A stretch of DNA of 64,000 nt. Source: a virus. The notes under the pieces were generated by a model. That model made no database searches, was not told where the DNA came from, and worked only from the letters and a program-made list of their open reading frames with translations. The stretch spans positions 64,001 to 128,000 of the IMG/VR virus record IMGVR_UViG_3300005732_000005; one strand, given 5' to 3'. Below, piece by piece: positions 21,915-58,812 of the stretch. The position numbers and the translations under genes were made by a program. The number at the start of each line of letters is the position of its first letter. Position 1 is the stretch's first letter.

Positions 21915-21996
21915 AGAATATTTCCTCTTTGTTAATGTTTGTTTATATTTAATTATAACACTTTTGTAGTAGGTATGCTACCAACCTTTTATCTAA

Positions 21997-22512
21997 TCAC
22001 TCCTTCAAACTACCCTCCTTTGTTCTGATTAAGTATATTTCACTCTCATCACAATTACGTTCATAATGATACCAAGATCCAGGACGGTGTTTTCTGCAAC
22101 TCAATCTTAAGAAAGTTGTTCCGTTAAAAAGAGTGGATTCTACATCTAACACATCTACAACGTTACCCTCGTCCATATAAAAATCCGCATCCCCACTAAC
22201 AACAATTTCCACCTCATCACCAACCTTAATCCCTAAATCCTTCCAATTTTCCAGAGTGATACGTACTCTGTTAGAGCTTACCTTATTGGTAGGTGTTTCT
22301 AGCTTCTCAGTGATACTCTGAGGGACTTTCTCTACCAAGCAAGGTGAATACTCCTCGGGAGATAACATACGCTCCAAAGCTTTCTCATGAGCCGATAGAA
22401 TACCTTTTGCAAAGTGTAATTGTTTCTCAAGGGTTTTAATCTTAAGATTAATCTCTTCTACAGCAAGTTTATCGTTGTAAATAGTTTCTTGTAAATTTGT
22501 AATTTGTTTCAT
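21997..22512 (-). CDS. Hypothetical protein
   Basis: GAGG RBS before MKQIT; coiled coil plus SH3-like beta domain. Confidence 0.55.
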   Translation of the reverse strand: MKQITNLQETIYNDKLAVEEINLKIKTLEKQLHFAKGILSAHEKALERMLSPEEYSPCLVEKVPQSITEKLETPTNKVSSNRVRITLENWKDLGIKVGDEVEIVVSGDADFYMDEGNVVDVLDVESTLFNGTTFLRLSCRKHRPGSWYHYERNCDESEIYLIRTKEGSLKE

Positions 22513-47239: not shown

Positions 47240-48307
47240 TCACACAATAGATGTGTATCGTTCTTGACGAACCAGAGGGTAGATGTTGCCATCAAAGAGT
47301 TTATAGCATTTTTGAGGAGGAAGATCCTCCTTGACAACCTTCATCGTTGTCTGGTGAGGCTTATTCTGAAACTTGTACCATAAGCACTCATTGGTCTTCC
47401 CAGTTTTATTGGTGTAGAAACCCTTACTTCCCGTAGAAACATTATAACCTGAAAGAATTCCAGCAAGATGAACACCTTCAGATATATTTGTCCAGTTCTG
47501 AGTGATAACTTTTATACCATTTTTACTAAGGTGTCCATCTGCTTTTTGAAAAGCATCCATAAAGGCTTCGACATTACTGGTCGGTTGATCAATAATAAAC
47601 CCAACAAGGTCTATTTTATATTTACAAAGTCTTTCAAACCCTAATTTTTCCCAGTAATCCCTGAACCATTGAGACTCTATGTAGTAGTTTCTGCATACGT
47701 TTGGTGACCGTTTTCTCTTGTGTGAGAAAGATAAGCAGCCTAACCTATTCATTAAGTTTTCTATCTCCTTGCCATACTTGTTATCATTCTGAGTTACTGT
47801 TGCAATGACACCTTTCCTTTTACCAAAAGATGCTGATGTCCTCTCAGATTTCTTGCTCCAACTTATATATCCGTCAGATAATAACCACCCTAGTAATCTA
47901 CACTCGTCTTCTGTTATATTAGTTTCACTGTTGTTCCGAAATGTAGCGCTGTTTCTGATATGGAATTCGCAAGATAAATTGTCCACATTCCTATGATCCA
48001 AAATATGTTTTCTGGAATTATCTGATAGAGTCATTCTCCTATATCCAAAAACTTTGTTGTCCTTTGAATACTTAAATTTCCAAAAACTATGTGATAACTC
48101 TACAACGCCCTTAAAACCTTCATGGATATTCTCAATAGTGTACCAAGAGTATTTGAATTCTTGGTCGGAACAAAGGATCTCTGTACCATTATAAATGTTC
48201 CAGACGGGTTTCCAACCTTGTTTAGTTAAGACATAACTGTCATCCGTAATCCAAGAATCAGATTCCATGTCACTTCTTTCATGTAAAATAATGTTGCTCA
48301 AACTCAA
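47240..48307 (-). CDS. Free-standing intein-derived LAGLIDADG homing endonuclease (splicing residues lost)
   Basis: TTG start after AAGGAG; Hint-like WITDDSYVLTKQGWK; LLGWLLSDG and AFMDAFQKADG; block F/G-like C-terminus ...LVRQERYTSIV* without terminal Asn. Confidence 0.75.
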   Translation of the reverse strand: MSLSNIILHERSDMESDSWITDDSYVLTKQGWKPVWNIYNGTEILCSDQEFKYSWYTIENIHEGFKGVVELSHSFWKFKYSKDNKVFGYRRMTLSDNSRKHILDHRNVDNLSCEFHIRNSATFRNNSETNITEDECRLLGWLLSDGYISWSKKSERTSASFGKRKGVIATVTQNDNKYGKEIENLMNRLGCLSFSHKRKRSPNVCRNYYIESQWFRDYWEKLGFERLCKYKIDLVGFIIDQPTSNVEAFMDAFQKADGHLSKNGIKVITQNWTNISEGVHLAGILSGYNVSTGSKGFYTNKTGKTNECLWYKFQNKPHQTTMKVVKEDLPPQKCYKLFDGNIYPLVRQERYTSIV

Positions 48308-48333
48308 TATTTTCTCCTTATTTATTAATAAAC

Positions 48334-48358
48334 AAAAATACCACCCCGAAGGGTGGTT
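48334..48358 (-). terminator. Terminator after DNA polymerase
   Basis: ACCACCC-TTCG-GGGTGGT followed by ATTTTTG. Confidence 0.75.
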
Positions 48359-48366
48359 AGTTAAAA

Positions 48367-48792
48367 TTAGTGTGCTCCAGCCCACCCTTCTGTGTGATGA
48401 GCTACCAAGTATTCCCCTGTAATGTGTACAGGACAGTTTAATTCCTTGTAGGCATCCTCTATACACCTTACCATTAACTCACCTGCTCTGGAGTAGCACC
48501 TTCCTATACTTCCGTCCTCAAGAACTTTAGTATTACCTGAAAGTATAAATTTTCCACCCTCAAGATTATCAGCCTGATCTTTTGCCTCTATGATACACTT
48601 GAGTTGCTCCATTGTCATGTTGTATTCTTTTAGCATTTCTTTAGCTGTCTTATAGGGCTTCCCTTTTGATTTAGCTTTCTTAGATTTAGCTACATCTGCA
48701 AGTAATCTTTTTACAAGGTCTTGATCTGAAAAACCTGTTTCAAATCTCTTCCATCGGACAAGTTTGTCTGGAACTTGTAGCTGGTATTCATC
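48367..48792 (-). CDS. DNA polymerase family A, exon 3
   Basis: Begins DEYQLQVP, completing motif C H|DE; ends GWAGAH. Confidence 0.9.
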   Translation of the reverse strand, partial: DEYQLQVPDKLVRWKRFETGFSDQDLVKRLLADVAKSKKAKSKGKPYKTAKEMLKEYNMTMEQLKCIIEAKDQADNLEGGKFILSGNTKVLEDGSIGRCYSRAGELMVRCIEDAYKELNCPVHITGEYLVAHHTEGWAGAH

Positions 48793-49021
48793 CTTCCTGT
48801 TATAAGAGTCGTTAGCTCTTTCTGAGATCACTCTCAGTGTCGGGTCATATCACATTCCACGAGGGAATCCCACCGTTTCAGATACACTTGTATCCTACGA
48901 ACAACTACGTTCTGACCTCCGCACGTTCCCTTTCGGGCTTCGCTCAGGATTACCTCGTAAGGCTTCCCTGAATTAGATGGGTTTTTCGACATACATTGCT
49001 GTATGAAGCCACAATGAGTTT
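48793..49021 (-). ncRNA. Group I intron 2 (229 nt, no ORF) in polymerase motif C
   Basis: P1 CCAU|AA with UUGUGG (U.G at splice site); terminal G; P10 UCAUU/GAUGA; P7 GAGGUCA/UGACCC; removal restores YYHDE. Confidence 0.9.
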
Positions 49022-49354
49022 ATGGTAGTAAATGGTCCTAGCTACACCCTTATCCAACAAACCTTCTTCTAAAGCTCTCTCGTGCCACAAAATACCTGCC
49101 AAATCCATCCCTATAGCTCCTGCACTTTGGAGATAACAATTTAACAATGAGTGCTTACTTCGTGTCCAGATTTTTCTTCCGTCAACGGCAACGATATACT
49201 TTTTACCTGAAGATTCCCAAACTTTCTCTAGATGTTCCTTTCTTTTCTTTAATCCGATGTTTCCATCCCAGAAAGCATCAATAACTTTTTGTCCTACTTC
49301 CTTACTTACTCCTAACATATTTGCTATTTTAGGGGCTGCTGCACCATACATTAT
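49022..49354 (-). CDS. DNA polymerase family A, exon 2 (111 codons)
   Basis: IMYGA...DGRKI...SKHSLLNCYLQSAGAI...YYH. Confidence 0.9.
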
Positions 49355-49648
49355 CGTTACAGTCACACAAGGTCGTTAATCTTGCGCGGTTCTCTTATGA
49401 ACTCCTGTACGTCTCCGTACAGACTAGACTATATCTTTCTCTTCAACTTTACTTGTTAAGAGATCTGCCGTTTCGATTTAAAGCTTTCCGCTACCACTTG
49501 GCTCTACTCCCATCTCAGGGATAGTCGTTACACGTTCAAGAACATAATGTTCAAGCTTCGCTCGGTATTGTCTCTTCAAAAGAAGTAACTTCCACCGAAT
49601 TAGACAGTATTCAATTATAGGTTTCCCTATAAAGGGGCTAATTATTTA
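49355..49648 (-). ncRNA. Group I intron 1 (294 nt, no ORF) in polymerase motif B
   Basis: P1 GGU|UAA with UUAGCC; P7 ACGACUA/UAGUCU and AAGAUAUAGUC S element; terminal G; removal restores RQGGKGITYG|IMYG. Confidence 0.93.
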
Positions 49649-51607
49649 ACCATAAGTGATGCCTTTGCCACCTTGCCTAGTTACCTCCCTTCCTGCAGCC
49701 TTGGAGTAGTTTTCAGCATTTCTTGAGTGAGCATCTTCTTCCTCCATTATCCTAAGATATTCTCCTCCGTCAAAGTCATAGGCTGCCCACGCTGCACACA
49801 TCCCTTCCAAGTTACTACCATCGATACCTAGTTGCCAGAATCCTTTTGGAACGGTGAATAAGCTCCTCATTTCATGACCTAAAAGTGCATCTGTAGAAGG
49901 TATATTTGCTATAACTGAGTGTTTTCTGCGATTCGTATTGGTCAGACCACTATATCTTGCAGGTAATTTACCATCTATTTTCAGACGAGGGTGGTTCAGC
50001 CAACCAGTTTCCTTATCTTCGTCAAAAGCTTTAATTACCGACCTCCTGTTACGAAGAGATAGCCACTTAACTATCTGACCCGCCATCTCACCATCAATCT
50101 TTTCCAGATTAGGGCAAAGCTCCCCACGATCATCTTTCAACTTTGCAGACATCGGTAAGAATCTTCCCTTTTTAACCACCCTTTGCATATCTTTGTGCTT
50201 CTCAGAGGTGATTTTCCTAATATCGAAGCCCATCTCCTCATTAATCCATTTTATGTAGATGGAGTCCTTCTTATCCTGCACCCATTCCCATGCCCTTTCC
50301 AAGACTTCAAATTCTGGGCGGTTCTTCTTGTTCTCGTCTCTTGTAACATCTTTTGTTCCTAGTATGGTAGGTATCCAACCACCTTCCTTAACCAACCACT
50401 CCTTTATATCTGCCTGATTAGCTAGTTTCATCGGCTCTTTTAAGAACTCTTCTGGAATATGTCTATCCTCTAATTGTTTTCTTAGTTTCTTCATCTGGTC
50501 ATCAGGTAAAGGAACTAAGGTATTAGCTTTATTAAGCTGACCACGTATAAAATCGGGCATCTTATCTTCATCCTCCACACCCATCTTAATACAATAGTTA
50601 TAACCGTTCTTACTTAGAGATCCGTCCTTCTTAAAGGCAGTTTTCGGAGGAGATACGTGTTGAAAGTATTCCTCATTAGGTTTGTAGCCTAAATACTTTC
50701 TTGCATAGTTCCATCCGTGACTACTTATTTCCCCTGCCTTATCAAAAGGATTAGCTGGAAAGTTAGGTTGACGACTCTCAGGTACATGTTTTAAAGGCAG
50801 TTTGGGTTCCACATCTTCCTCTATTTCCCTCATCATACTATCCACTTTCTCAAGCAATTTCCAAGCAGCCTTTTCATCGAAGACTACTCCCTGCTCCTCT
50901 TGGATTTGCATCAGATAGTCTGATTGAGAATTTCTTAATAAGGGAACTCTCCAATCAATACCCTTATCCTTCCCATCCTGAGATTCTTTAACCAAAGCTT
51001 GCCATTGCAATTCATTTATGATCACATCAACCCATACTCTGTCGCAATACTTCCACAAAGGTAGCCCTCTCCAGTCTTCTATTTGAACTTTTTGATTTGC
51101 AAGCTTATAGCCCCAGCTCTCTAATGAATGGCTGCCAATCGTCTTAGCCTTACCTCCAGAAGGATTCTTAACCTTAGAGGGACATCCGTGAGGTAATGGT
51201 CGGTCAGGGTATAGTGCCCTTGACATACTTAGTGTATCAAACAATCTTAGTTTTCTACTACCAATACTTTCTGGAAACATACTTGATTCCAATCCAAATT
51301 GATCAGCGATTGCCAGCAAATCGAATCCAAACTGGTTTTGACAACCTATAGCAGAAATGTCAGAGTCGTTCTCAATCCAATCAGGAAACTCTTTTAAATC
51401 TTTAATTCTTAGGTTGACATTTTTCTTATCAACAAATTCTTTTGCTTCTTTAAACTCGGGATGGGAGTGATCAAGAAAGATCACCCAATCATCTTTTGCA
51501 TATTGTTTAAAGAGCATTACGTGAAAGTGCGTCATATGGTCTTCAGGTGCAATGCTTTTACCAGCTAAACCGTCACTTTCAGTATCGTAAATATATAAGC
51601 CCTTCAA
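49649..51607 (-). CDS. DNA polymerase family A, exon 1 (3'-5' exonuclease, motif A); spliced product 905 aa
   Basis: YDTESDG ExoI; HSLESWG; TNTNRRKH...NIPS; GIDGSNLE motif A; Tyr at the Pol I 762-equivalent site. Confidence 0.92.
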
Positions 51608-57108: not shown

Positions 57109-58812
57109 TTACATTCCCAAAGCTGTCATAAACATTCGGAAAATAAAGGATGCCACAACTAAAAATACCACTATCACTACAGGTAGTGCAAAGAATAAAA
57201 TAAATGTAGTACACACCTTATCACTTAAATTATCTTCGTTGTGGTAACTTATAACTAAGCATATACAAAACCATACGCAACCTATAATAGCAATACTTTG
57301 CTCATCCATCACACAACCTCCAACCTATTCACTTCAGCAAGCTTCTCTTTTGCATCTTCAACCTCTTGTTCAAGTTCACGGATCTCTAACTTCAGATTAC
57401 GAACCTTGTCAGCATATGTATCAATAGTGAAACGACAACGTTGTGTGATACGAATCTTCTCTTCTTTGGTGATAGTTTTAACATTACTCATCAAATCTCT
57501 CCCTCTTTAATCATCTTAACGATTTTACTAATTTCTGCAGCAATTCCTGTTTCTGGCAGGGTGTCTGTATTATGGATAAGCTCACCATCTCGGTATACAT
57601 ATAAACAATGACCATATTGCTGAATGACACAATCCTTATAAATTTGAATATTGTGCATCTACCTTCCCTCCTCAAAACGTTCTTCCGAAATAACACCTAT
57701 ATCACTATTCATACACTCCAAAACTACCTCACTAGGATAATGTCCATGAGTAGATTTAAAATCCTCTTGAACACTTACTCTCAGCCAATCCTTTGCAAGA
57801 GCTTCACCTTTATCAGTCCACTTCTGAGGAGGTAACTCTACCTCAATCCCAATCTTCTTGTCAACAACTTTCACTTTAAAAATATATTCTTTCACACATC
57901 CTCCTCAAACCCTCTCAAACACTCCTGACGCTTCTTATGTTTCTTTAAGGAACGTTCGTCCTTTCCACAAGAGATATCCTCTCCAGAAGCTTCCTGCTTA
58001 CTAGAATTAATCTTTTCTAGTATGTTTTCCTTAAAAGGTTTATATGTATCCCCTTGTTCAGCCATCCCTGCCAAATAAATCATCCCTTTCTTAGACAACA
58101 CTTTCAGCATCTCATATTGCCAAGCGTTATACTTTCTTTTGAGGTAGGACATTATTTGCAAGTTCTTCTTTGCAATAGAAAGTTGACTCTTGAGAGCAGT
58201 GTTATCTTCTTCAAGTTCACGGATTCTCTCTAGGTAATGTTCGTTCTTCATAGACATACTCATTCTCCTACAATTTAATTGTTTCAAGGTTATTTGTCTT
58301 CAATTTACGCATCAGTTCTTCAAATGTCAAGTCCGAAAGTTCATCCCCATCAGGGTTTATTTTCTTGAGCTTATCTTCTGAACAAGCGATAATATTCCCC
58401 TCTTTAGTTGTGAATGGTAAGAACCAACCAAATTCGTAATCGTTTTTTAACGGGTTATAATATTTACTAGATTCATTCAGTACAAACCTCTTACCTAACA
58501 AACTCTTGTTTTTGTGCTGATGAACATAAATAATCTCCACCAAATCACCTTTCTTGAATTTCATTATTTCTTCCTCCAAAGTTTCTTATTTTGTTGCTGC
58601 TTCACCCAAAAATGTTCTTCTTCTAGTATACCGTCTTTTGGTAGAAGGAGTGTAACCGAGTCACATATCAATCCTTCTTCAGGAATACCTACAACCACTA
58701 CCTCTTTTCCCGCAACCTTTAGTGCAGTAATAATATCTTCTGAGTAAACAACATCCTCATCTGCTGTAAAACTTACATAAATCTTTTCTTCGTACATAAT
58801 TATTTCCTCCAA
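57109..58812 (-). other. Run of small early genes (57109-57312 membrane, 57309-57494, 57659-57895, 57892-58287, 58268-58579, 58564-58812)
   Basis: Tightly packed ORFs with GGAGG RBSs behind TTGACA promoter at 58850-58855. Confidence 0.55.

Follow-up and report, generated by a model that had tools for sequence, protein, structure and literature searches.

A phage DNA polymerase gene with two predicted group I introns beside a nuclease of probable motif-B intein descent: a candidate for collaborative homing

The stretch of DNA analyzed here, referred to as the window, comprises 64,000 nucleotides (nt), bases 64001-128000 of the complete 140,374-bp virus record IMGVR_UViG_3300005732_000005, which carries direct terminal repeats. 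On its minus strand lies a gene for a family A DNA polymerase (PolA) that is interrupted twice and is followed by a gene for a free-standing nuclease. The closest relatives of this nuclease are inteins of PolA enzymes, and these reside almost without exception at the codon boundary in polymerase motif B that is filled in the window by the first of the two introns. Sequence comparison thus places the nuclease as a descendant of the PolA motif-B intein family, whose usual homing site is the spot now held by intron 1. An intron without an open reading frame (ORF) in a conserved gene, next to a gene for a free-standing endonuclease, is the arrangement seen in collaborative homing. The original prediction had proposed such a system in a three-part form, composed of the nuclease and both introns. 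It is suggested here, with moderate confidence, that the nuclease and intron 1 are collaborating partners, which have probably spread together, and that intron 2 travels as a passenger. The features of the locus are as follows, with lengths of proteins in amino acids (aa) and expectation values given as E.

51607-49649, minus strand: DNA polymerase exon 1 (family A, T7-like), 653 aa; from the ORF and a match to T7 DNA polymerase
49648-49355, minus strand: group I intron 1, 294 nt, ORF-less; RF00028 gives 74.9 bits (E 3.5e-17), with the Rfam gathering score at 50
49354-49022, minus strand: polymerase exon 2, 111 aa, IMYG...TIYYH; from the ORF and alignment of homologues
49021-48793, minus strand: group I intron 2, 229 nt, with no nuclease ORF; RF00028 at 33.5 bits, below the gathering score, with E 6.7e-6 taken from a 5-kb search
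48792-48370 (stop to 48367), minus strand: polymerase exon 3, 141 aa, DEYQLQV...GWAGAH; from the ORF and alignment of homologues
48340-48357, minus strand: terminator-like hairpin, ACCACCC-TTCG-GGGTGGT with a T run behind it, that separates the polymerase stop from the nuclease gene; consensus match only
48307-47240, minus strand: free-standing, splicing-dead intein homologue with a Hint domain and double LAGLIDADG; from P0001, homology and predicted fold

The ancestry of the nuclease is revealed by its relatives. A tblastn search gave a match (30% identity over 280 aa, E 1e-25) to an insert that E. coli phage nepoznato carries in its polymerase. This insert is an intein flanked by ...AKSVKYG/C...GN/CTYGAQ, the slash marking the boundary, and it occupies the same codon boundary as KGITYG/IMYG in the window. 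A full HMMER profile search of 1.8 billion representatives returned 795 hits, and the best of these are nearly all inserts of ~330 aa within proteins of 950-1200 aa. The flanking pattern K...[YF][AGS]/C...GN/[CS]xYG was found in ~35 of the ~40 inteins inspected, with a few (KIL1, P0018 and P0045 among them) inserted four codons upstream. Inteins of the nuclease family were not found at motif C among these ~40 inspected flanks, and a search of the word index for relatives longer than the nuclease itself returned none. The nuclease shares 36% identity with the P0010 intein. The polymerase of P0038 is 45-55% identical to that of the window and carries its intein at the window's own junction, 653/654. 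Since the relatives are almost all inteins at the intron 1 boundary, the comparison points to motif B as the ancestral target of the nuclease. The tblastn match to the nuclease is also given by four unannotated records of ~146 kb labelled “Campylobacter phage” (30.0%, query residues 7-280, E 1e-19). An identical match is given by records of E. coli Phapecoctavirus, and the four may carry a wrong host label.

Maximum-likelihood analysis unites the window-type free-standing proteins in one clade (SH-aLRT 100), which is in turn nested among inteins, seven of them grouping with it at SH-aLRT 99. The free-standing proteins of VnaP, VPMCC14 and 249E41-1 are located elsewhere among the inteins of the same tree. 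Independent escape of the window-type and VnaP-type nucleases is not claimed, as a single free-standing clade is not rejected by the approximately unbiased test (p 0.11). It is put forward, tentatively, that PolA motif-B inteins have left the reading frame, perhaps more than once, and now exist as free-standing genes downstream of the polymerase gene (pol), with an ORF-less intron holding the vacated boundary.

The nuclease is derived from an intein without itself being one. Its start is better placed at the TTG at 48307, giving 355 aa, than at the ORF-list start of 48466, because an AAGGAG lies 6 nt upstream of this TTG and the database protein P0001 is 355 aa long; an ATG at 48268 would give 342 aa. 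The leader MSLxNIxxHxRSD is kept in homologues down to 48% identity. The AlphaFold model (predicted local distance difference test score, pLDDT, 76) is that of a Hint domain with an inserted double-LAGLIDADG domain. Its best Foldseek matches are whole endonuclease-bearing inteins, namely TliVMA (E 1.4e-13), PI-SceI and PI-PfuI, with I-AniI among the weaker ones. The descent from an intein that the original prediction had assigned to this neighbour is therefore borne out by both sequence comparison (tblastn and profile search) and predicted fold. As for splicing, the protein is encoded by a separate gene after the polymerase stop and the hairpin, and has no C-extein. It has Ser in place of Cys1, the block-B TxxH reads SKDN (Asn for His), and the chain ends ...RYTSIV, two residues short of the terminal GN of its relatives. 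The nuclease is accordingly predicted to be splicing-dead.

The endonuclease portion is better preserved. The two LAGLIDADG helices, LLGWLLSDG and EAFMDAFQKADG (AFQKADG), each carry a catalytic acidic residue, and these residues, D145 and D257, are invariant across nine homologues. Relative to the L031 homologue, the ratio of non-synonymous to synonymous divergence (dN/dS) is 0.08, a sign of strong purifying selection, which indicates a working protein. Endonuclease activity is plausible on the grounds of this ratio and the two invariant residues. The loss of the splicing residues and the weak Pfam match to LAGLIDADG_3 (17 bits) would suit a different reading, in which the gene is a decaying, inactive relic and the arrangement serves no present function. 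This is considered very improbable, given that the ORF is intact in at least nine homologues down to 48% identity, that the leader and catalytic motifs are conserved, that selection is strong, and that the predicted fold is confident.

Purifying selection of this strength would also be expected of an ex-intein that had been repurposed, either as a maturase for one or both introns or as a weapon against the DNA of competing phages or satellites, and that no longer served primarily in homing. LAGLIDADG maturases exist, and the fold of I-AniI is among the weaker matches listed above; ICP1 is reported to have turned a homing-type nuclease against satellites (cited in PMC10448857). Such repurposing is judged improbable. 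Pure maturases often lose the catalytic Asp residues of LAGLIDADG, yet both are invariant in this family. Homologues of the nuclease also stand beside intron-less polymerases, so that a maturase role could not be general. The patchy distribution of the gene and the mosaic structure of the locus, described below, resemble those of a mobile element.

The boundary to which this ancestry leads lies within a polymerase gene in three exons. Exon 1 matches T7 DNA polymerase at residues 535-631 (E 2.5e-5), and its C-terminal end falls within motif B, where it reads R-QGG-K-GIT-Y-G with a final base T; the T7 counterpart is RDNAKTFIYGFLYG. Exon 2 also ends in T, and its protein is 75-91% identical to the polymerases of ICP1-like phages. 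The DEYQLQV at the start of exon 3 completes the HDE of motif C, and the GWAGAH at its end is the usual Pol I C-terminus. The exons add up to 653+111+141 = 905 aa with no internal stop. The joined product is colinear with the uninterrupted polymerases of L003, ICP1, 193E37-1 and eugene (63-67% identity over 906 aa). Where relatives are split, the alignment is interrupted precisely at 653/654 and 764/765. The predicted spliced junction at motif B is AAAGGCATCACTTATGGT/ATAATGTATGGTGCAGCA. Removal of both introns had been expected to yield a 905-aa PolA, and the open joined frame and the full-length alignment with intron-less polymerases agree with this.

The nearest homologues of the polymerase are those of the ICP1-like vibriophages VnaP, VPMCC14, 193E37-1, eugene 12A10, S4-7 and ICP1, and the phage itself is regarded as a member of this group. 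In Pfam searches, the separate exons gave no match at E 0.01, and the sole match to PF00476 over the whole genome is one of 10.9 bits in exon 2. What identifies the gene as PolA is thus its match to T7 polymerase, together with the motifs and with homologues that are annotated or scored as DNA_pol_A. A search of the complete genome found no second PolA-like gene. The polymerase gene would thus be single and essential, and the enzyme is predicted to form only after two splicing events, in line with the claim that replication depends on both.

Each interruption has the predicted hallmarks of a compact, ORF-less group I intron. Intron 1 is inserted in phase 0 between G653 and I654, in the KGITYG/IMYG of motif B, at a position equivalent to 763/764 of E. 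coli Pol I. It begins with an in-frame TAA (UAA) and its final base is G. Intron 2 is likewise inserted in phase 0, between H764 and D765 in the YYH/DE (HDE) of motif C, at the equivalent of 881/882 of E. coli Pol I, and also ends in G. In the putative P1 pairing of both, the last U of the 5′ exon stands opposite a guide G (GGU/UAA with UUAGCC; CCAU/AA with UUGUGG), and precise excision restores the host reading frame. The two introns share the core strings TCTAATTC, GAGCGAAGC and GAACGTG, all three of which had been named beforehand and were located in each. Intron 1 passes the gathering score of RF00028. Intron 2 scores below it, and introns of relatives at the same site score above it, with 60, 58.5 and 94 bits for VPMCC14, S4-7 and L018, respectively. 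Over both sites of VPMCC14 and S4-7 and the motif-C site of L018, the range is 58-94 bits. The VPMCC14 and S4-7 introns share 60-65% of aligned bases with intron 2 of the window, and the L018 intron shares 51%. The largest ORF inside either intron is 52 aa, so neither encodes a nuclease. The placement of ORF-less introns at 49355-49648 and 48793-49021 by the original prediction was exact in both coordinates and junctions, and both pairs of splice sites obey the rules for group I introns. In a search for sequencing runs that contain the stretch, only DNA metagenomes with a small share of it came up, and none from RNA.

In the public annotations of several relatives (VPMCC14, L001 2880-7219; VnaP, L023 3784-8123; S4-7, L002; 249E41-1, L026), the split polymerase is entered as three or four separate proteins. 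These are labelled “DNA polymerase II, III, IV”, the introns are unannotated, and the ex-intein nuclease is named “DNA polymerase/3'-5' exonuclease domain V”. The analysis of the locus is of practical use in this respect, as it corrects the annotation of these related phages.

From these components, the following course of events may be proposed for intron 1 and the nuclease. The nuclease would still recognize the motif-B DNA of pol alleles that lack an insert there, and would cut such alleles in a co-infecting phage. Repair of the break from the donor would then copy intron 1 into the recipient, which constitutes collaborative homing. In the phage's own gene, intron 1 would split the target and thereby confer immunity. 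A conversion tract that bears the nuclease gene would have to extend downstream by ~1.4 kb, across exon 2, intron 2 and exon 3. A conversion range of ~2 kb has been reported for T4 (PMC2790892), and the distance required here falls inside it. Since a tract that reaches the nuclease gene must cross intron 2, this intron is more likely a passenger in the conversion tract (trans homing) than a third specific partner.

A specific role for intron 2 was dropped, as no homologue of the nuclease was seen at motif C. The three-part form of the homing system is not supported for this reason, and for two others: intron 2 occupies site 881, the site of the phiI and W31 introns (PMC3428280), and the nuclease and the introns occur apart from each other in relatives. 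For intron 1, the idea of collaborative homing is backed indirectly, since the nuclease descends from inteins of that very boundary in motif B.

Comparison with the closest loci bears on how recently these elements have moved. Intron 1 shares 98% identity with its counterpart in L031, intron 2 shares 92% and the nuclease gene 87%, while the exon DNA is 75-90% identical, with a synonymous divergence (dS) of 0.65-1.8. The identity of intron 1 to its VnaP counterpart drops to 68%, which means that its ribozyme tolerates change; its near-identity to the intron of L031 suggests recent sharing. Against L044, the values are 94% for intron 1, 97% for intron 2, 83% for exon 3 and 77% for the nuclease. 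The rank of L031 and L044 by similarity switches along the locus, which would indicate a mosaic. The pattern of exchange fits active gene conversion, whichever enzyme makes the breaks. A recombination boundary in the divergent middle of exon 3, as compared with L031, was considered and rejected; this segment is a variable loop that is unalignable to nepoznato too.

Within this family of polymerases, the motif B and motif C sites are both hot spots. No insert interrupts motif B in ICP1, eugene, 193E37-1 and many others. An ORF-less intron is found there in the window, L031/L044, VnaP/VPMCC14, S4-7 and L030, an HNH-bearing intron in L009 and L014, and an intein in P0038/L037. At motif C, ORF-less introns are present in the window, VnaP/VPMCC14, S4-7, L004/5, L018 and 249E41-1, and HNH_3- or LAGLIDADG_2-bearing introns in L007, L015 and L011. 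A free-standing ex-intein downstream of pol was found in six lineages, three of which have the motif-B intron (window/L031/L044; L030; VnaP/VPMCC14). Among ~14 lineages without the nuclease, three have a motif-B intron, and two of these carry an HNH gene of their own. The sample behind these counts is small and its lineages are not phylogenetically independent. No further loci came from IMG/VR or the JGI metagenomes when these were scanned with the alignment of the nuclease, and the co-occurrence table stayed small as a result. The association between the nuclease and the motif-B intron appears enriched in this sample and is facultative, not obligatory.

Several of these observations weigh against a homing partnership of the nuclease and intron 1. 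The other three nuclease-bearing lineages lack a motif-B intron: L034-36/L045-47 and L052 have no pol intron, and 249E41-1/PS17B-2 have the motif-C intron alone. A nuclease of this family can therefore stand beside an uninterrupted motif B, and the intron is not needed for self-immunity. With only 30-36% identity to the nearest inteins, the nuclease may have shifted in specificity. Its gene differs from that of L031 at a dS of 0.65, which means that it did not accompany the near-identical intron 1 in the latest exchange. In addition, the slot after pol is occupied by unrelated nuclease-like genes in other relatives: a CapR + T5orf172 gene in eugene, where pol is intron-less; a CapR-domain protein in S4-7, where both introns are present; and an AP2-domain protein in L004/5, where intron 2 is the sole intron. 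Such mixed contents mark the 3′ flank of pol as a general landing pad.

These contents are also what would be expected if the elements were independent residents of a hot spot. The nuclease would then be an ordinary homing endonuclease that, in phages without it, cuts near its own insertion point, at the 3′ end of pol or in the intergenic region, and the introns would be older residents of intron sites already known from polymerases. Protection would come from sequence differences, and the introns would have been moved by general recombination or by any nearby break. In keeping with this, homologues of the nuclease occur with 0, 1, 2 or 3 pol introns, and at least three other nuclease types are found directly behind pol genes both with introns and without. 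Despite different downstream nucleases, VnaP, S4-7 and L004 share 88-91% identity in intron 2, and islands of homing endonuclease genes around essential genes have been described for ICP1-like phages (Barth et al., PMC10448857). This reading, the main rival, is considered less likely. It leaves unexplained why a nuclease from a motif-B intein family should be found in three lineages beside an intron at that exact boundary. Furthermore, free-standing endonucleases that arise from site-specific elements usually target the neighbouring gene, as with HO/WHO (PMC10448857).

The distribution also includes several arrangements outside these counts of presence and absence. The metagenome contig L030 (L030:4421-5517) encodes a divergent, RRKKSK-type polymerase that is interrupted three times: at motif B, at an intermediate site between B and C (~223 nt), and at motif C. 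It is followed by a nuclease that is 52% identical to that of the window. In intron-less polymerases that are followed by the nuclease (L034:905-960, L045:743-800), motif B reads KGLSFA/SLFG. The Ala before and the Ser after the boundary form the pattern of intein-bearing alleles (..FA/C..), unlike that of empty ones (..YG/I..). This sequence could have been left behind by an intein since lost, or could reflect a change that confers resistance. The ICP1-like allele with an intein, that of L037, has a NUMOD4/HNH_3 endonuclease gene (L037:3910-4419) directly upstream of pol, so that a nuclease gene lies on one side of this polymerase or the other, depending on the relative. Pseudomonas phage KIL1 (L029 2228-5335) has a motif-B intein in its polymerase, and the frame stops at motif C after ...FHDES. 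This suggests an unannotated interruption at motif C; a downstream exon with the C-terminus of nepoznato was not found, nor was an Rfam hit.

Each component of the proposed mechanism has a precedent. Collaborative homing, trans homing, phage polymerases with multiple introns and free-standing nucleases derived from inteins (HO/WHO) are already known. Collaborative homing has been described for the free-standing I-TslI of phage T3 together with the ORF-less DNA-polymerase intron of phiI/W31, and for F-CphI together with the psbA intron of cyanophages (Bonocora and Shub 2009; Zeng et al. 2009; via PMC3984707, PMC10448857, PMC3428280). Intron 2 of the window shares its insertion site with the phiI/W31 introns, as noted above. 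However, I-TslI and F-CphI are HNH or Endo VII-type enzymes, whereas the nuclease considered here is a Hint-LAGLIDADG ex-intein. Unlike the phiI/W31 case, two introns are present, the ancestry of the nuclease points to motif B instead of 881, and cleavage is inferred.

MobE of T4 brings about trans homing of the defunct nrdB intron (PMC2790892). It illustrates how an adjacent free-standing endonuclease can bring a non-autonomous intron along in a conversion tract, and this is likely the situation of intron 2. MobE is an HNH enzyme and its effect was shown by crosses, whereas the argument for the window comes from geometry, with the presumed cut site on one side of intron 2 and the nuclease gene on the other. 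The HO/WHO proteins of yeast are LAGLIDADG endonucleases of intein origin whose free-standing genes adjoin the gene they target (Coughlan et al. 2020, cited in PMC10448857). They resemble the window nuclease in retaining the whole intein scaffold without protein splicing, as a separate gene that adjoins the presumed target gene. They differ in being eukaryotic, in their descent from the VMA1 intein and in having no intron, while the window holds a phage gene with a PolA motif-B intein as the putative parent and an intron at the ancestral site.

ICP1 provides a comparison from the same phage group. Its terL gene has an ORF-less intron beside a T5orf172 endonuclease, its nrdA carries a LAGLIDADG intein, and splicing of terL and TMP was validated by RNA sequencing and reverse transcription PCR (Barth et al. 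2023, PMC10448857). The logic of the terL arrangement is the same as that proposed here. Unlike that of the window, the ICP1 polymerase is uninterrupted (L006), and a split polymerase with a free-standing ex-intein is not described in the available part of that paper. Polymerase genes with two or three self-splicing group I introns have been reported from Bastillevirinae, SPO1 and Twort-like phages (PMC11878797). These genes are likewise split by several group I introns; unlike the introns of the window, theirs mostly encode HNH, GIY-YIG or LAGLIDADG enzymes, with sites at 674 and 676 (PMC11878797).

What is new, as far as homology can tell, is that the relatives of the nuclease are PolA motif-B inteins at the codon boundary of intron 1. 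This provides collaborative homing with a concrete and testable basis for intron 1. The origin of intron-borne, intein-borne and free-standing homing endonucleases is an old question for which few intermediate forms are known. The locus offers a testable pair in this regard: a codon-precise target can be predicted for the nuclease from its ancestry, and the intron sits on that target. Close relatives supply natural controls in the form of empty, intein-filled and HNH-intron-filled sites. If the proposed reading is true, a boundary that is empty or holds an intein, an HNH-bearing intron or an ORF-less intron within one polymerase lineage would represent a living series. Endonucleases would shift among intein, free-standing and intron-associated lifestyles, and the intron would act as an immunity element for a former intein nuclease. 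Intein-derived LAGLIDADG enzymes with long targets are also useful starting points for genome-editing reagents.

Group I introns are not confined to the polymerase gene in these phages. In VPMCC14 (L001:10395-10676, 91 bits) and 249E41-1 (L026:13254-13533, 83 bits), a further group I intron is located ~4-5 kb downstream of pol, where it adjoins a gene of ~400 aa; no counterpart was found in the window at the gathering score. Two more are present elsewhere in the genome from which the window was taken, at 21924-22140 on the minus strand and 57915-58157 on the plus strand (L039, L041). Both exceed the Rfam gathering score, at 95.4 and 65 bits. With these two introns outside the window, the phage carries at least four.

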